From Octopus vulgaris (lineage: Eukaryota): a stretch of 64,000 bases of DNA. The stretch is from contig OX597814.1 in the NCBI GenBank assembly GCA_951406725.2, forward strand, positions 62,868,001 to 62,932,000. The letters run 5' to 3'. The notes under the pieces are model-generated. The model was not told where the DNA came from and searched no databases. It saw only the letters and a program-made list of their open reading frames with translations. This document shows positions 13,008 to 61,000 of this stretch, one piece after another. The position numbers and the translations under genes were made by a program. Positions within the stretch are counted from its first letter, which is position 1, and each line of letters opens with the position of its first letter.

Positions 13008-13021
13008 AACATATGTGTGTG

Positions 13022-14600
13022 TCGATAAGAATCTCTAATTTATCCGCATAGAAAACGATTTTCGATAGTTTTGCACCCCTTTATAACACAGTGCTAAAAG
13101 ACAGTGGATTTAAAAGAAAAATATATATTAAAAACACAATATTTAAAAAACAAATTAGGCAAACGGTTTCCAAATATTGCGAATTCAAGCATCGACACAC
13201 CTCCCATGAACAACGCCACCGAATACAGAAACCAACAACACTTTAGAAGACACTATAACTTATAACAATAACTATACTGGGCAGAATAGGAAGAACTCAG
13301 GGAGGAGAAGGGAAATTATATGGTTCACACCCCACTTTTCCCTCCAGGTCTGAAACCTCCCTAAATAATTTTTTAGTATTATCGATAGGAATTTCCCACA
13401 AGGTCATAAATACAACTCTATATTTAATAGATCCTGCCTTAAATTATCTTACTCAACCACACCCAATCTAGGACCTATTATCGCGGCCAACAATAGACTT
13501 AAACTTAGAAATAATGGTAATAATAGAAATGGTTATTTAGCTGAGCTTAATATGAAGAATAATAATGAGAACCCTCATATTAAAAATAGAAAGGCTAAAC
13601 CTGGCAATAAAACAAATAAAACATGTAATTGTCGTAATAAGGAGCTTTGCCCCCTAAAAGGTTTCTGTTTAAGGAGAAATGAATATAAAGTTGAAGTCTT
13701 AACGCTTAACGAATCTAAAAAGATTTACATTGGTAGTACGACGGATTTTAAAATTAGATACGAACTAATTTACTAACCACAAAACTAAAAATTAAACCAC
13801 ACTAGTTGCCCGCATCAATAAATTAAAAGTGCACGATAAAGAATTCAGTCTAGATTGGTGTCTATAATAACGGAAACCACACCATATAATACACACAAAA
13901 ATTGCAATTTATGCACGAAGGAGGCGATCCACATAATCCGTGCCAACAAAAATAGCTTACATAATAAGATATCTGACGTCATAATTACCTGTAGACAGAA
14001 ATATCTTTCAACTTTTAAATTCTTCCCTGAAGATATAAGATCCTAATCTAGCCATGCTTCATATATTATATATAGCGTCGTAATATACCTTAGCCTGTAA
14101 TTTTAATTTTAATTATATCATCTGCATGAAGAGTATGATTCGACTAAACATTCGTTTTTTTAAATTCTCGAACCTCTCATATCTCTTAAAATCTTAACAA
14201 CTCGTTGAATCCCTTAACTCTGATGAGGGAAGTATAGATAACTGCTATGGTTGGAGTTAGCTCGCCTATATCAACCTATAATCTTCTCGAAACGGCCGTA
14301 AGATTTTGTACCTATTTAGGATTCCTCATGAATCATCTTATACTAACTTTCTTATCTACCCTCTTCATTGATTCTAATACGGACATTGGACTTCGCAAAT
14401 ACATCTATATATTTATATCTATGTGTTTATTTATTTATAAACTTTTATGTGCTTATAAATTTTTATATACTTCTAAATCTTCGTATGTATATGTGTTTAT
14501 GAATACTTATAAATTTGTTTATCATATCTCATATGTGAAAGCATCTATGTATATTGTATATTGTGGAGAATTTCGATAATTTGAAATGGATTGAATGAAT
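13022..14600 (+). mobile_element. Penelope-like retroelement, 5'-truncated pseudogene (RT thumb, GIY-YIG endonuclease, pLTR)
   Basis: Translated pieces IRISNLSA*KTIFDSFAPLYNTVLKDSGF, RRREIIWFTPHFS, HKYNSIFNRSCLKLSYSTTPNL, CNCRNKELCPLKGFC, IYIGSTTDFKIRY, CNLCTKEA; multiple stops and frameshifts; flanked by (CA)n and (TA)n. Confidence 0.9.
14216..14305 (+). ncRNA. Type I hammerhead ribozyme in the PLE 3' region
   Basis: CTGATGA at 14220, stem II GGGAAG/CTTCTC extended by TATAG/CTATA, GAAA 14289-14292, palindromic stem III ACGGCCGT, GUA triplet, weak stem I. Confidence 0.8.
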
Positions 14601-14799: not shown

Positions 14800-15556
14800 A
14801 TATATGTACGTACCTACCTCTACATGTACATATACACGCATATATGAGTACAGGACACCAAAGGGACGTCGAACACAAAGAGAAACGAAAACATAGACAC
14901 AAACCAAAGGAACTGGACATTTTTTAAAAAACAACAAAAAATGAAGTACAGGACAATTAACACAAAGAAAAAAACCCTTCTTCAGTCGCTATGGTTTCAT
15001 CTACTCTACGTTTCGAAGGATAAAAGCGAGACGTATCTTCGACAAGAAACTTTCCTTCCTGCGAAAACAAATCAATTAAAATTCTGAGATCTTTTCGCAG
15101 AGGGGTAAAAAATGGTAAAAAAATGGTAAAAAAACAGGACAGTAATGACAGTACAAAAATATAAACAGTAAAAGACAGGACAGGGAAAAACAAGATAAGA
15201 AGGGCTGTTGACGCCGAACGAAAAAAGTATTGCAAACGCAGAATTTTTTGTGAACGACAGGGGAGCAGGAAGAATGTCGTCCAGTTACCTTGAAAGGCCA
15301 GGCCAGAAAGACAGTCAGAGCGGAAGTATCGCCGCGGGTGGACGACGAGAAGGGGGGAGGAGGAGCAAGAGGAAGGGAGAGAAGAAGGGGAATGGCTGCG
15401 AGGAAACCATGAAGAATGGTGAGGGAGAGAGAGAGAGTGAAGAATGAGAGAGAGAGGAAGAGACAAGTTAAGTAGAGGAAAAAGAAAATCAAAGAATAGG
15501 GATGGGACAGAAAGGTTTTGATTTTCTTTTTCCTCTACTTAACTTGTCTCTTCCTC
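14800..15556 (-). mobile_element. (TA)n-associated dispersed repeat family D ending in a 40-bp hairpin (probable PLE pLTR)
   Basis: Homologous to 20290-20468 and 54815-55180; perfect inverted repeat 15454-15493 / 15517-15556. Confidence 0.6.
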
Positions 15557-22904: not shown

Positions 22905-25040
22905 AGGGGCACGAATTGCTCTAGCCAAGTAAACTGTGTGAGGCCTTTCAACAGCATTTTGCCCGACTGTTCGAGACGAGTGGCGGGCAAGAACGTAGGG
23001 TGGACTTCAGTGCCTACCTACACAGCCGACCACGACTCTCGACAAGAGAGGCAGGGCGCTGGGAAGGTGCCATCACGGCGGTGGAAGTGCAGAACACGAT
23101 GGCAGAATGCTCGAGGGACAAATCGCCGGGTTTGGATGGTCTACCCTACGAGCTTTACAGTTGTATGCCAGACTTGTTTGGAGACGTCTTGATAGCGGTG
23201 TACTGCAACTGGCAGCAAAACGGGAGCATTCCTGGTTTTGTGAGCCGAGGAGCCGTAACACTGCTGAAGAAAGATCTAAACAAGGGGAATGTAATAGATA
23301 ACTTTAGGCCCATCACTCTGCTTAATGCAGACTTGAAAATTTTGGCCAAGGTGTTAGCCAAGAGGTTGGCGCTTGTCCTTGAGAAACTGATCGACAAGGT
23401 GCAAACATGCGCCTGCCGGACCGGAGCATTCATGACAATCTCCACCTGATGCGCTACATCATAGACAGGGTAGTTAAGGAACCTGGCATGGGTGGGGCGC
23501 TGATCAATTTGGATCAATCGAAAGCTTTCGATAGGGTAGATCATCGATACTTGGAGGCTGTCCTCAGAGCGGCTGGTTTCGGTCCCGACTTCCGCGGCTG
23601 GATAGCCGCTTTGTACAGAGGTATCCGTTCGGTAATTCGCGTAAATGGACATCTATCGAGACCTTTCGACATTGCATGTTTGGTTCGTCAGGGATGCCCC
23701 CTCTCGTCGCTTCTCTACGTATTGACTCTCGAGCCATTATTGCGGAAGCTGGCAACTCTGAGAGGCATCCCGCGAGAATTAGGATGCGGGACGAGCATGT
23801 CTGCATACGCGGACGATGTCACCGTCATAGTGTCTAGCCGCGAGCACATCGAGCAGGTCGGCGAGACACTGAAAGACTACCAAGCGGTGACAGGAGCGAA
23901 AATCAACCGGGAAAAATCAGTGGGCTTGCGGCACGGCACCTGGAGAAGCAAGCCCATGCCGTAAACCAGCGCCTCCATCGTGGGACGCTGGACCGACGGT
24001 CCGGCTGAGTTGCTCGGGGTCTGGTTTGGTCCGGACCCCCAAATGAAGAAAAACTGGAACGAGATAACGAGTAGGGTGGTCACTCTCTGCAGGCAATGGA
24101 CCGAGAGGAAACTGTCCCTAAAAGGTCGGGCGGAGGTGGCGAACTCGTACATCGCGTCCGTCATCTACTACCGCCTGACCGTCGTGTCCTGTCCCGACCC
24201 TACTATCACCAAACAGAACTCATTCTCTTTCGCTTCTTGTGGAAAGGATGCGTCCCGATGGTCAGGCGATCCATTTGCTGTCAACACCCGTTAAAAGGAG
24301 GACTGGGCATGCCGTGGTTGATGATGTGCAGACATGCACTGGGACTGCGACATCTCAGGCTCTACGTAGACGACAGTGAACATGTGTGGTCGCCATTTGT
24401 GAGGCACGCTTTACCGCAACTCATCTCTATGACCGAACTGCAGTCGTGGATCAAAAAGAGGCCGAGAAAGGGCGAATGGCACCGCGAGCGTCGCGTTGCT
24501 CTCAAGCAACTATGCCGTCCCGGGTCGACCTTGAGTGACTCCATCACAACCCAAGCATTTTATAGGGGATTAGTGGAGGGGAGGTACGACGATGAGCTCG
24601 GGGCAAAGTTTTGTGTAGCGAGTAGCAAGGATGGCACGTATGAATGACAAAGCCACCTTGAGCATAATCCTATGAACCCGGACATTTAAAACAGAGGGTT
24701 ACCTACTTGCAAACAAATGTGGTAACATGTAACAATATTGATCGAGGTTACCGTGATATTTTCCGTAGACTTTTCTTCCCACGGATAAACCTTATCTGCT
24801 TCCCCCTTTACACCTTACATCATGAGACTGTGAAACACGATCCCTATTGATCGTTTTTTTGTTTCTTTTCCTTTTTTTCTTTTTTTTCTTCTTTCCCTTT
24901 TTTTTCTTCTTTCCCTTTTACGATCCCTTTTGATCGAAAACCTTCCCCATCTTTTTTTTGTTTTCTTTCCCCAAAAAAGAAAAGCTCTCCTTTGTAATCT
25001 GTCCCGTCCGTATGCAGTCCTGTGTGGCTAATAAAGAAAC
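22905..25040 (+). mobile_element. L1-clade Tx1-like LINE, 5'-truncated, RT pseudogene with 3' UTR
   Basis: Motifs KSPGLDGLPYELY, NFRPITLLNADLKILAKVLAKRL, DQSKAFDRVDH, VRQGCPLS, YADD, GGLGMP; frameshifts near 23410 and 24215, stop at 23962; AATAAA near 25030; (TATC)n on both sides. Confidence 0.93.
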
Positions 25041-28495: not shown

Positions 28496-28629
28496 AGCAT
28501 CTACCATCCTACCTCCCTCTCTCCCTCCCTCCTTCAAAAAAAGATGGGTGAATGTAGGTGGAAAGAATAGTACTTGAATACCGAAGGTAGAGAGATATGC
28601 TTTTTTAATTCTGCAAAAACATAAAAGAA

Positions 28630-28671
28630 AACTGTTACTCAGAGTTTCACGTTCCTGTTCGTTGGACAGTT
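28630..28671 (-). ncRNA. Degenerate type I hammerhead in a PLE pLTR fragment (about 28540-28735)
   Basis: Minus strand AACTGT-CCAACGA-ACAGGAACGT-GAAA-CTCTGAG-TA-ACAGTT: perfect 6-bp stem I, core mutated from CTGACGA. Confidence 0.6.
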
Positions 28672-28820
28672 GTGATCAAGACTATTGCTCAGAACTGTCT
28701 GGGTAAAGATTTTGCAGCTTTAGTAAAAAAGTATATATATATATATATACTCTTTTACAAAAAATGCTATGCAAAATGACCGTTATACCCCGTTATACCG
28801 TTTTCATAGCATTTTTCCGC

Positions 28821-28893
28821 TGGCCGGATAACTGAAGAGATGGCGGCGTGGATTTCCACCTCGGCATCCGAAACTCGGAGTTTCATCATAGCT
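28821..28893 (+). ncRNA. Type I hammerhead ribozyme, copy 1
   Basis: GATAA-CTGAAGA-13-pair imperfect stem II-C-GAAA-CTCGGAG-TT-TCATC; one stem I mismatch. Confidence 0.7.
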
Positions 28894-28986
28894 GCCGAAT
28901 ACTTGTCTCATATTACATTTACAGATACATTCCTCTATTTACATAATATCGATGTCTCTTTTTTTCTTTTGTTGCCTTATCATCTC

Positions 28987-29030
<44 letters not shown>

Positions 29031-29118
29031 TGATAAGGCAACAAAAGAAAGAAAGAGACATCGATATTATGTAAATAGAGGAATGTATCTGTAAATGTAA
29101 TATGAGACAATTATTCGG

Positions 29119-29192
29119 TAGCCATGATGAAACTCCGAGTTTCGGATGCCGAGGTGGAAATCCAAGCCGCCATCTCTTCAGTTATCCGGCCA
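29119..29192 (-). ncRNA. Type I hammerhead ribozyme, copy 2 (antisense)
   Basis: Reverse complement of the copy 1 motif with intact CTGAAGA and GAAA. Confidence 0.7.
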
Positions 29193-29257
29193 TCGGAAAA
29201 ATGCTATGAAAATGGTATAACGGGGTATAACGGTCATTTTGCATAGCATTTTTTCGA

Positions 29258-29331
29258 TGGCCGGATAACTGAAGAGATGGCGGCGTGGATTTCCACCTCG
29301 GCATCCGAAACTCGGAGTTTTATCATGGCTA
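29258..29331 (+). ncRNA. Type I hammerhead ribozyme, copy 3
   Basis: Stem I GATAA/TTATC extended by TGGCCG/TGGCTA; CTGAAGA 29269-29275; GAAA 29307-29310; predicted cleavage after GUU at 29319. Confidence 0.78.
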
Positions 29332-29353
29332 CCGAATAATTGTCTCATGTTAC

Positions 29354-29390
<37 letters not shown>

Positions 29391-29392
<2 letters not shown>

Positions 29393-29796
29393 CGCAGGAG
29401 TGGCTGTGTGGTAAGTAGCTTGCTAACCAACAACATGGTTCCGGGTTCAGTCCCACTGCGTGGCATCTTGGGCAAGTGTCTTCTGCTATAGCCCCGGGCC
29501 GACCAATGCCTTGTGAGTGGATTTGGTAGACGGAAACTGAAAGAAGCCTGTCGTATATATGTATATATATACATGTATGTGTGTGTTTGTGTGTCGTGTT
29601 TGTCCCCCTAGCATTGCTTGACAACCGATGCTGGTGTGTTTACGTCCCTGTCACTTAGCGGTTCGGCAAAAGAGACCGATAGAATAAGTACTAGGCTTAC
29701 AAAGAATATGTCCTGGGGTCGATTTGCTCGACTAAAGGCGGTTCTCCAGCATGGCCGCAGTCAAATGACTGAAACAAGTAAAAGAGTAAAAGAGTA
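29391..29796 (+). mobile_element. SINE family A, full length, near consensus
   Basis: GGCGCAGGAGTGGCTGTGTGGTAAG through GTAAAAGAGTAAAAGAGTA; inserted in (TA)n. Confidence 0.93.
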
Positions 29797-29875
29797 TATA
29801 TATATATATTATATGTATATATAATATATATATAATTAAATCTCAGAATGAGATTGAAACAGTAATCGCTCGATA

Positions 29876-30173
29876 ATGTAAAGTATAGAAGCCATCTTAT
29901 CATGGCTAACCACACTGGGGAGGGGGTGTTACTGTAGCTTTATAGCCCCAAGAGATCGTCGTCTCTAGCTGGCTTTAGACACAATATCAGTGCTCTTGGA
30001 GTATTTGCAAAGGGAGGCGAGGAAGGGATGGGCTCCCTTTGCAAATACTCCAAGGGCACTGATATTGTGTCTAAAGCCAGCTAGAGACGACGATCTCTTG
30101 GGGCTATAAAGCTACAGTAACACCCCCTCCCCAGTGTGGTTAGCCATGATAAGATGGCTTCTATACTTTACAT
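29876..30173. repeat. 141-bp inverted repeat with 16-nt loop
   Basis: 29876-30016 versus 30033-30173, one mismatch seen; TA-rich flanks. Confidence 0.93.
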
Positions 30174-30221: not shown

Positions 30222-30633
30222 TCTTCTGCTTGTTCCAGTCATTATACTGCGGCCATGCTAGGGCACCGCTTTCAATTTTTAGTGGATGGAATCGGCCCTA
30301 GTATTTCTTTTATTAAGACTTGTACTTATTCTATCGGACTCTTTTTGTCGAACCGCTAGATAACAGGGACGTAAACACACCAACACCGGTTGTCAAAGCA
30401 GTGATGGGAGGGGACGAACACAGACACATAAACACACACTCATAGATACGCACACACACACATATGTATACGACGGGATTCTTTCAGTTTCCGTCTGCCA
30501 AATCCACTCACAAGGCTTTGGTCTGTCCGAGGCTATAGTAGAAGACACTTGCCCAAGGTCCCACGTAATGGAACTGAACCCGAAACCATGTGGTTGGGAA
30601 GCAAGATTCTTACAACACACCCACTCCTGCACC
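30222..30633 (-). mobile_element. SINE family A, full length
   Basis: Reverse-complement match to the 29391 copy. Confidence 0.9.
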
Positions 30634-30735: not shown

Positions 30736-30921
30736 TAATGTGTGTATATAGGAATAAAATTATCTAGGCGGTTACCGTCGTAACTCTCATGATGTGGGCT
30801 ATACCACGGTTACTGTGGTATAGCCCACAGCATGTTGACAGAAACCTCTGTGACATGGTATTTTAAACTAGCCAAAAGAAAATACATTAACTCAGCTCGC
30901 TCCTAACCATACTTGCTGAAA

Positions 30922-31133: not shown

Positions 31134-31134
<1 letters not shown>

Positions 31135-31473
31135 GTAGTAAACACATAAATGTGAAACAAGGTGGAAAAAGAGTACTCAAATACCAGTGGTAGAGTAATA
31201 TTACTCTACCACTGGTATTTGAGTACTCTTTTTCCACCTTGTTTCACATTTATGTGTTTACTACGGTGTAACCCGCTCCTTATAAAAGTTTGAGCGACTC
31301 TGCACAAGTAGGAAGAACAAACAGCTGAAAAAGATGGAACTTTACCCGCTGGATTTTTCTCAGAAAAATATACCTATCCCTGCATGGAAACAATATCTCA
31401 AAGGTCTTATAGAGAAAACGGAAGAGTTTATTCGAAGATTGAGATGGAAAGCCTTCTTCTTTGATAATAAACA

Positions 31474-31476
<3 letters not shown>
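31134..31476 (+). mobile_element. Penelope-like element fragment: perfect 132-bp palindrome followed by the ORF N-terminus
   Basis: 31134-31265 is a spacerless palindrome; ORF from 31334 reads MELYPLDFSQKNIPIPAWKQYLKGLIEKTEEFIRRLRWKAFFF, matching the PLE N-terminal pattern (S.KNIPIP...R.RWKA.FF); (TA)n both sides. Confidence 0.8.
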
Positions 31477-31541
<65 letters not shown>

Positions 31542-58699: not shown

Positions 58700-61000
58700 C
58701 AGTAGATAAGTGTTATTTTCTGACCGGCAGATTGAGGACGTTGAAGGGGTTTCAATTCCGAACCGAGACCTATATTTCATTAAAAGAGTACTCATGTAAA
58801 TACTATTATGACCTAACCCGCACTTGTTTATCTAACTTAGTAAAAGAATGTTTTGACAAGGCAGTTACATATTGGGCGTATTGTGACCAACGGTGGAAGT
58901 CAATATCCAATAGTCTCATCGATACAATTTCTTTTGCCGTTTTCGCTAGAGTTGAGAGGCATTCTAGTGATAAGCCGACTTCTTGCCCTGGCTTCTTCTT
59001 CTTCTTCTTCTTCTTCTTCTTCTTCTTCTTCTTCTTCTTCTTCTTCTTCTTCTTCTTCTTCTTCTTCTTCTTCTTCTTCTTCTTCTTCTTCTTCTTCTTC
59101 TTCTTCATCTTCTTCATCTTCTTCTTCTTCTTCTTCTTCTTCTTCTTCTTCTTCTTCTTCACTTGCTGACTTCGTCCTCTCTGTCAGATCATCATCCGTT
59201 AACGGATCTAAGTGGGTCTCAATCAAATTATTAACGTTCTCGGTAGTCACATCAGTGAAATTATATCCTCTTAACAATTTTGCCAGTTTCACTGTCTTAT
59301 CTACTACAGAGTGATAGATTTCGTCAGGAGAAAATCCTTTATAGTCGTGGACCGCTTCTGGCCACAATTTCTTCCAGCTGGCATTCAAAGTTTCGTTCTT
59401 CATTTCCTTTAAGGCCTTCTGAATATTTTAGAGACATGAGGAAATGGTGTACCCACGCCAGTACTCCTTCAGCGAGGAGTAATCATCCGAGTTCATAGCT
59501 TCGACTAGGTGTTGCAGGGAGTTTCGCGTATAGAGCGCCCTAAAAGCACGAATAACGCCTTGATCCAAAGGCTGGATCAGTGACGTGGTGTTAGGCGGTA
59601 AGAATTCGATTTGTACACCCTCATAAAGAGATCGAGCGCGTGACCTCAAGCATTAGCCATTAGTTCTGTTTCAGAGAGATAAACCTTGACTTCGGAGATG
59701 AAGCACTGGTGAAATCAACCCGATATCAGTGGTTTCGTTATCCATGCCTTTTGATTGTGCATCCAATGCACTGGCAGCAGGTTCTTATTTTTGTTTTTGA
59801 GGGCCCTTGGGATTTTTAACTTAAATATAAGATCTGGCCTTATCATAAAGCACTCAGCATTTCCACACAGTATAATTGTGACGCGATCTTTGTACGCCTT
59901 AAATCTAGGTGCTCTGACTTCCTCCTTCATAATAAATGCCCACGACAGCATCCGTTTCCAAAAGAGGCCGGTCTCCTCCATATTGTAAACTTGTTCACGC
60001 GAATATCCCCCTGCCTCGACGATGGTCTTGAACGTCTCGTTCACGTATTCTTCAGCAGCGGTTTTTTTTTCAGCAGAAGCAGCTTCTCCATGCAGGGACA
60101 CATTCTCAAGGTTGAACTTCCTTTGAAATTTATCAGACCAGCCCTTGCTAGCATTAAATTCGGTTAATTTGGTGGGAGATGCCGTAGATGCTCCTAGTTC
60201 AGGGTCGTCTGGGTCGTCGTCACTGTCATCCGTAAATTTGCCGTATAGCTGCCTGACCTTTTCATGGATGTTGTTGGTATCTAGTGCAATGCTCTTCCTA
60301 CAGTCACTGATCCAAAGGGCTAATGCAGACTCCATCCCTACGATGGCCTTATTGCAGGAAGTTACCACTCTTTTCGTTGTCTTGTTAAAAATCATTTTTG
60401 CCGTCGCCCTTATGATTTTCCCGTCCTTCTTGATGTAGCGAATGGTAGATTCATTGATGATGTAATGGCGGCCTATATCCGCATACCTTCTCCCTTACTT
60501 AAGCTTGTCGAAGAGTCTCACCTTCTCTGCTATAGTAAGCATATTCCTCTCCTTTGAGGCTTGGGTTCAATGCCAGAGGCCTTAGAAGGTGTAGAACGTT
60601 TGGGCGACATCGTAGGGGTTGAAATAAATTCACAATTTGACACACAAATGCAAAACAACACCACACACTCACCTCCCGAGTTTTGTTTTCCATACAAAAT
60701 GTGCGATTCTTTGTTTACTCATCTATGGTACACTACGTATCTTCTTTTGATATATTTTAATTAATGTGTTGTACAGTGCAGTACTGTACTGTATTTTTAT
60801 TGGTTAATTTATTATTTTTTATTGCTTCTTTTATCACAAAAATAATTAAAATCTAAAAAAAAATATATAGATAAATATCTGTTGAAGAAACCCGCGATAT
60901 GCTGAGGAGTCCACGATATAAGTTTACGTATACTAGCCAGAAAACTCCGCAATGTACTGAGGGCGCAATAGGCGAACCGCGATATGGCGAGCGATTACTG
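58700..61000 (-). mobile_element. Tigger/pogo DNA transposon, transposase pseudogene
   Basis: 5' TIR CAGTAATCGCTCGCCATATCGCGG at 60977-61000 plus TA; ATG at 60610 (MSPKRS...LTIAEKV...INESTIRYIKK), FNASKGW, LHGEAASA, YNMEETGLFWKRM, KDRVT, FLPPNTTSLIQPLDQGVI, WKKLWPE; 3' TIR not recognised. Confidence 0.92.
58993..59160. repeat. (TTC)n expansion inside the Tigger acidic tract
   Basis: Reads as in-frame poly-Glu on the transposase strand. Confidence 0.95.

Follow-up and report, generated by a model that had tools for sequence, protein, structure and literature searches.

Does the stretch of Octopus vulgaris DNA between positions 28759 and 29357 of the window (the whole 64,000 nucleotides analysed, from whose first letter all positions are counted) encode a viroid-like RNA, or is it an insertion of a common retrotransposon end? 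Three copies of one hammerhead-containing unit, here termed U1, U2 and U3, lie in it, and a sequence-only reading had proposed that a plus transcript cut by its own ribozymes could be released as a rod-shaped circle with a hammerhead in each polarity, while naming an inverted duplication of a 5'-inverted Penelope-like element (PLE) insertion as the simpler explanation. Our analysis favours the latter: the locus is very probably a compound non-coding insertion, made of the hammerhead-bearing 3' end of a high-copy PLE, probably of the Hydra clade, in a (TA)n microsatellite.

Organization of the locus

Repeat comparison bears out the proposed plus, minus, plus arrangement of the copies between (TA)n tracts (Table 1). 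U1 is matched by U2 in an inverted repeat whose 248-nt arms are 94% complementary, without a spacer and centred at 29006/29007 within (TA)n(GA)n, and U2 and U3 form a second one with 145-nt arms (90% complementary) and a 25-nt spacer; U1 and U3 are offset by 437 nt in direct orientation. Outside the microsatellite the copies differ by substitutions without indels, at 7 of 228 positions between U1 and U2, 8 of 121 between U1 and U3 and 5 of 121 between U2 and U3. The 3' ends of all three adjoin (TA)n or (GA)n(TA)n, and neither a target-site duplication nor a tail of 30-40 nt is discernible amid these microsatellite flanks, which hide duplications. No open reading frame (ORF) of at least 120 aa lies inside the unit, which occurs in the 64-kb window at this locus alone.

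Table 1. Features of the three-copy locus, in window coordinates
Feature	Position	Strand	Basis or detail
U1	28759-28986	+	inverted- and direct-repeat comparison
U2	about 29027-29254	-	inverted-repeat comparison
U3	about 29225-29357	+	inverted- and direct-repeat comparison
Left (TA)n tract	28732-28749		sequence; target or break site
U1 head	28759-28800	+	private to the locus; copies 29213-29254 (U2/U3 junction plus about the first 30 nt of U3) in inverted orientation
U1 body	28801-28986	+	PLE-type 3' end, duplicated locally from U2; family bounded mainly at about 28801-28973
(TA)n(GA)n tract	28987-29030		sequence; centre of the tail-to-tail inverted repeat
U2 body	29031-29213	-	3' end of the same PLE-type repeat as U1, antisense
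Head-to-head junction U2/U3	29214-29224		9-nt repeated start (29215-29223 = 29225-29233)
U3, extent	29225-29357	+	same repeat with the family's upstream letters; ends at the next (TA)n, about 50 nt before the 3' bound of the family
Right (TA)17 tract	29357-29390		followed by SINE-like repeat
U1 hammerhead	28821-28894	+	C3 28832, G12 28870, H17 28882, GUU; breaks in helix I at 28884 and 28890; 22/24 modelled pairs
U2 hammerhead	29119-29192	-	C3 29181, H17 29131; helix I second-pair mismatch and one helix II pair lost; 22/24 pairs
U3 hammerhead	29258-29331	+	C3 29269, H17 29319; only intact copy, 24/24 pairs

Hammerhead motifs

A type I hammerhead descriptor applied to both strands of the 64 kb gave exactly three matches, and none in 50 of 50 dinucleotide shuffles. 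It finds again the folds that had been placed at 28821-28893, 29119-29192 and 29258-29331, and agrees with the earlier cleavage sites, 28882 and 29319, and with a monomer of 437 nt between them; Rfam returned no match on the window at its gathering score. The motif combines a CUGAAGA core, a long helix II with a bulged C, a palindromic 3-bp helix III (ACUC-G-GAGU) and the cleavage triplet GUU, which is cleaved more slowly than GUC. GUU is among the triplets given as cleavable in PMC3138052. The catalytic core bases are intact in all three copies. The second pair of helix I is an A-C mismatch in both U1 and U2; the majority letter in sequencing runs restores it. Of the helix III positions, the runs list a single one as variable, 28877 in the middle of the palindrome, as a dimer-type helix III predicts. 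Considered in isolation, the hammerheads reach the active fold at an ensemble cost of 8.1 (U3), 12.0 (U2) and 15.8 kcal/mol (U1) in a folding model without tertiary energy, in which only contrasts between copies are meaningful.

A high-copy repeat family

Contigs aligned to U1 and its left flank number 7,242, 7,839 and 7,249 in the genomic-type runs X1, X2 and X3, counts that include a separate 50-nt repeat at 28628-28676. The alignments cover four of the 24 listed runs and use U1 and the left flank only; runs X15-X20 (share 0.04) fall outside this set and carry no evidential weight. Summed depth over 28821-28963 averages 0.73-0.91 million in X1-X3, against 14-75 for the single contigs listed, and is inflated by overlapping contigs and thus not a copy number; we infer that the copies of the family number thousands or more. 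Cover is concentrated on about 28801-28973 with sharp family bounds, and in DNA-type runs the locus-private head of U1 reaches a summed depth of only 1-325, against about 1e6 over the unit. In the run search, holders of the sampled words fall under four organism labels among those listed, two of which are found among the aligned runs.

The ends of the family are informative. Loose ends upstream of 28801 match the letters at the start of U3 (30-nt consensus), and those downstream lead into a 3' end other than the local one and then into TA repeats. Nine of the ten joints listed from the runs switch strand, all of them from 28801-28827, the 5' end of the unit, to internal points at 28837-28926; with orientation judged from position, we interpret them as inversions of head-to-head type whose 5' truncation varies. 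None of the ten runs from the 3' end back to the 5' end, a weak test since contigs break at TA repeats. Rows with A>G changes are present in DNA-type runs and in those guessed to be RNA alike, and editing is not indicated either way. No parent reverse transcriptase (RT) or endonuclease ORF was linked to the unit in the aligned contigs, and two pattern scans of metagenome contigs gave no matches. One viral contig shared 18 nt with the unit without flanking similarity, a match that we attribute to chance.

Relationship to Penelope-like elements

Judged from its ribozyme and its target, the unit is probably the 3' end of a high-copy PLE of the Hydra clade. Its CUGAAGA+G core, palindromic ACUC-N-GAGU helix III, GUU site and (TA)n target constitute the signature of this clade, whose members were described as having canonical hammerheads and (TA)n targets, within a group whose insertions often include an inverted 5'-truncated copy (Craig et al. 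2021, PMC8557442). In the table of that study a GUU site is found in 10 of 26 rows and an ACTC-N-GAGT helix III in 5 of 26, and (TA)n is preferred by 26 of 27 Hydra-clade families. Hydra-1_oBim, whose helix II begins ATG, has the core CTGAAGAG, which the octopus unit shares, and Penelope-13_HM bears a hammerhead on each strand owing to an inverted 5' copy (PMC8557442). The octopus hammerhead likewise lies near the 3' end on the sense strand, with its cut site about 90 nt from the family bound at 28973. An inverted 5'-truncated copy adjoining the 5' end is found at U2/U3 and in nine of the ten listed joints, and the family is dispersed and multicopy, as expected of PLE insertions.

The likeness to the Hydra-clade elements, especially Hydra-1_Obim and Penelope-13_HM, thus extends to the sense-strand type I hammerhead near the 3' end, the CUGANGA+N core, the palindromic helix III with one central base, the common use of GUU, the (TA)n target and the inverted 5'-truncated copy that places hammerheads on both strands (PMC8557442). 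However, helix II of the octopus motif is longer and bulged and, like the flanks, is unlike every listed row, which points to a separate family; the octopus locus also differs in having no attached ORF and in carrying a third, tail-to-tail copy. Canonical PLE insertions, with an inverted pLTR and a tail, share its head-to-head inverted terminal repeats, whereas the tail-to-tail arm is an addition here and a target-site duplication cannot be discerned in (TA)n (PMC3846280). The dimer-type palindromic helix III is shared with the PLE hammerheads of Cervera and de la Pena (2014, PMC4209133), who reported dual hammerheads 100-700 bp apart on opposite strands in Schistosoma; a minimal Schistosoma motif showed no activity as a monomer and little as a dimer in their study. 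Two 10-nt words from the unit had no match among the supplement sequences consulted from PMC8557442, so that the family is not one of those described there. Nor did the literature that we searched on octopus Penelope elements, hammerheads and retrozymes hold an account of this hammerhead family, and the main text of a 2026 octopus repeat annotation, in the portion consulted, mentions neither hammerhead nor ribozyme, though its repeat library may hold the family (PMC13282606). On these comparisons the hammerhead PLE family is apparently unlisted so far.

Origin of the three copies

The private junction is found in both U1 and U2, as are non-majority letters at 28884, 28928 and 28953 and a 3' end that departs from the family loose-end consensus. 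The junction and 3' end common to both identify U1 as a local tail-to-tail duplicate of U2. A further non-majority letter, at 28908, is common to all three copies, and each copy has 2-4 private changes. Position 28820 conflicts with a simple tree, having the non-majority letter in U2 and U3 and the majority letter in U1, so that conversion between arms or recurrence is needed. From these letters we conclude that the three copies appear to be of similar age. The joints, the private junction and the shared letters all favour what the earlier reading had called the simpler explanation.

The steps may be reconstructed as follows. U2 and U3 stand head to head in the pattern commonly left by PLE integration and would have arisen by that route. 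U1 is a copy of U2, together with the junction and 30 nt of U3, that would have been made in inverted orientation around (TA)n, most likely through a (TA)n end that paired with itself and primed fold-back DNA synthesis, at integration or during later break repair. Each copy would then have acquired a few substitutions by drift, some conversion would have taken place between arms, and the hammerhead would be a passenger from the parent element, where it would have been built to act as a dimer. The fold centre of the U1/U2 arm sits in self-complementary (TA)n and is compatible with fold-back priming; a long tail-to-tail arm is nevertheless unusual, being present at one of 52 (TA)n tracts in the window.

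The tail-to-tail arm could instead have been made at the RNA level, as a variant of the second step in which a U2 sense transcript ending in (UA)n either self-primed reverse transcription or inserted by retrotransposition into the adjacent (TA)n. Arkhipova et al. (2013, PMC3846280) give head-to-head as the most frequent PLE form and predict tail-to-tail repeats from self-priming on a sense template; the position of the fold centre and the roughly equal divergence of the three copies, as one event would give, agree with this. Against it, U3 extends about 100 nt beyond the part copied into U1, which favours the simpler course of copying DNA in place, and a short fold-back of 13 nt beside the left tract scores 7, in the range of the controls, 29% of which reach 6. 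From this one locus we regard the RNA-level variant as rather unlikely; a history of sense-template self-priming by a PLE, recorded in the TA-centred arm, is correspondingly doubtful. Much less credit is due to an inverted triplication of one ancestral copy by DNA replication (direct-inverted-direct, the ODIRA model), without PLE machinery at either junction. This model accounts for a plus, minus, plus order in which both junctions have short inverted repeats (PMC4689423), and the letter at 28908 is common to all three copies, but head-to-head joints at the 5' end of the unit recur elsewhere with varied partners, which indicates the element's own integration, and the duplicated stretch is limited to the element and excludes flanking DNA. 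Marginally less probable still, and very improbable in absolute terms, is that the U1/U2 arm is an assembly or read fold-back artefact. Such an origin would fit an inverted repeat without a spacer; moreover, none of the aligned contigs spans the locus (bins 28730-28755 are uncovered since repeats were skipped), and none of the runs contains as many as half of the sampled words. Yet the seven substitutions and no indels over 228 nt, the unequal size of the microsatellite halves and the different flanks on the two sides speak against it, as the earlier reading had argued from the substitutions between copies. The compound PLE insertion, with its arm probably copied at the DNA level, remains our preferred account.

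Could the locus release a viroid-like circle?

The more far-reaching proposal was a genome-encoded viroid-like or retrozyme-like element, whose plus transcript would be cut at 28882 and 29319 and ligated into a 437-nt rod-shaped circle with ribozymes in both polarities, making RNA-to-RNA replication possible. On paper the geometry works, with two direct hammerheads 437 nt apart and one antisense, and all three copies retain the core catalytic bases. The predicted monomer is, as had been stated, almost wholly self-complementary: its folding energy is -328.5 kcal/mol (z -39), and in circular form 91% of its bases are paired. The unit also occurs in X10, a run guessed to be RNA (972 contigs), and PMC7761336 mentions retrozyme RNAs of negative polarity as well as a viroid-like RNA that is integrated in carnation.

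The ribozymes themselves argue otherwise. Both of those required are the damaged ones (22 of 24 pairs each), since the circle junction would join the 5' half of U3 to the 3' strand of U1, the most decayed copy, and the minus ribozyme would come from U2; the 3' strand of the intact U3 ribozyme would be cut away from the circle. The expected motifs, one across the junction and one in the opposite polarity, are thus present, but both are mismatched and, within the circle, the active fold is predicted to cost 129.4 (plus) and 126.2 kcal/mol (minus). In the precursor, both monomer folds together would cost 134.8 and a double hammerhead 181.9 kcal/mol, and the U1 active fold 72.5; once U1 has been cut, the active fold of U3 would cost 103.4; without U2, the modelled double hammerhead costs 18.5 kcal/mol for U1 with U3 and 11.9 for U3 with U3. 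During transcription U1 would be 16-23 kcal/mol from its active fold before U2 appears and more than 120 afterwards. U2 pairs with either U1 or U3, and the two cuts therefore exclude each other thermodynamically in the model. A counter-result is that in the full precursor U2 is predicted to pair with U1, leaving U3 as free as in isolation (8.1 kcal/mol), and a single cut at 29319 is possible. For related metazoan PLE ribozymes, in vitro work reports no activity of monomers and weak activity of dimers (PMC4209133).

Nor would there be two distinct polarities, as minus equals plus at 398 of 437 positions (91%) and the monomer is a palindrome. In X10 the ratio of depth between the unit and the neighbouring repeat is 2.5, against 1.1-1.9 elsewhere, which is no marked enrichment, and contigs reveal neither strand, ends, circularity nor expression level. 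A 29319-to-28883 junction, proposed earlier as a diagnostic, is a weak test, reading almost like the linear unit that is abundant in the genome. With damaged ribozymes, cuts predicted to be mutually exclusive and near-identical strands, the headline claim of a released rod RNA is not supported, and we hold it to be extremely unlikely. It is just as hard to credit that PLE ends stacked by chance give off in vivo a palindromic 437-nt circle bearing one hammerhead per polarity, for instance where host helicases, or trans-dimerisation with other transcripts of the family, allow U1 to cut ahead of the synthesis of U2.

In size, high pairing and a hammerhead on both strands, the hypothetical circle resembles viroids with hammerheads, circular RNAs of viroid-like type and the retroviroid-like element of carnation (PMC7761336, PMC11210808), and the highly structured, non-coding nature of viroids has its counterpart in the pairing of the monomer and its lack of long ORFs. 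Viroids are, however, characterized by the lack of a DNA template (PMC11210808), whereas the octopus unit is a genomic high-copy repeat, its pairing comes from inverted duplication and its ribozymes are decayed and, in the folding model, locked. Animal non-LTR retrozymes (PMC7229834; bioRxiv 10.64898/2026.07.22.740005) have in common with it a short, non-coding, PLE-derived type I hammerhead repeat of low GC, but theirs are head-to-tail tandems with hammerheads in consecutive units, in contrast to the inverted middle unit here, which would block the flanking ribozymes.

The locus is most likely inert. A read-through transcript of the compound insertion would zip into a hairpin of more than 200 bp, silencing the ribozymes, and, if the locus is transcribed, long hairpin dsRNA for Dicer or ADAR is a likelier product than a replicating circle. 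By analogy with Drosophila lines carrying rearranged Penelope copies, in which siRNAs mapped to the inverted regions (PMC3681739), siRNA production or A-to-I editing would be the more plausible effect at the RNA level.

Neighbouring repeats

The window consists of repeat-rich, animal-type DNA, and its SINE is one that we take to be octopus-like. Two fold-back insertions besides U1-U3 lie within 2.2 kb, one of which leads into the start of a Hydra-type ORF. In this one, a perfect 132-nt palindrome (31134-31265) follows (TA)n and precedes a leader and an ORF start at 31334; the insertion (31134-31480) holds the first 49 codons of a Hydra-type PLE ORF and ends at the next (TA)n. RWK is present in the 49-aa peptide (P0001), which has 592 relatives with E values of no more than 0.001. 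The best of these at full length, P0007 (713 aa), has RWR, DKT, YRDD, CxCX5C, CxxC and CxH, which fits the published description of Hydra-clade PLEs as having a single ORF with RWK, DKT, CxCX5C and, at the C terminus, an endonuclease of GIY-YIG type (PMC8557442). The PLE-like proteins were assigned through these published motifs, and searches of Pfam and PDB sequences with them gave no significant match. Decayed PLE-like RT/endonuclease remnants similar to P0007 are found at 13019-13761 and 1493-1996, one of them, at 13369, with CxCX5C and YIG.

The other insertion (29836-30173) contains a palindrome at 29876-30173 with 141-nt arms, 99% complementary, and a 16-nt loop, preceded by about 40 extra bases on the left only, like a PLE tail; neither a second copy in the window nor a hammerhead was found for it. 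Insertions of fold-back type in TA-rich tracts are thus common in the region. Two copies of the SINE-like repeat that is common in the window, in opposite orientation (29391-29790 and 30222-30633, 81-89%) bracket the palindrome in a 1.3-kb nested inverted structure; they are probably independent insertions, their identity being like that of other copies. Shorter palindromes lie at 30788-30834 (47 nt, 89%) and 15454-15556 (103 nt, 82%). Broken LINE-type ORFs occupy 22925-24647 on the plus strand (RVT_1, E 1.9e-23 for 23383-23961), and frames at 58900-60494 on the minus strand, judged by eye, presumably represent a pogo/Tigger-type transposase remnant.

At 28628-28676 on the minus strand, 80 nt to the left of U1, lies a second, unrelated high-copy hammerhead-like repeat. 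It has a 4-bp helix I, the ACUC-N-GAGU palindrome as in U1, with a centre (28641) that is variable too, a GUA site and C at core position 4; this copy has A in place of G5, while the runs keep the core G as their majority letter. One may speculate that the palindrome common to both repeats could allow cross-family dimers.

Concluding remarks

Taken as it is, the locus is unremarkable, a single compound insertion derived from the end of a common retrotransposon, and inverted PLE ends with hammerheads on both strands are already known. If the circle were real, it would offer a snapshot of ambisense viroid-like RNAs arising from retroelement debris and a link to the origin of viroid-like replicons. 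For the calling of viroid-like RNAs the locus serves as a warning that inverted PLE ends can mimic signatures of the 'ambisense ribozyme plus rod' kind. To the Hydra-type elements it adds an apparently unlisted hammerhead family of very high copy number, and its tail-to-tail arm is a small clue to priming at (TA)n by PLEs or repair polymerases.
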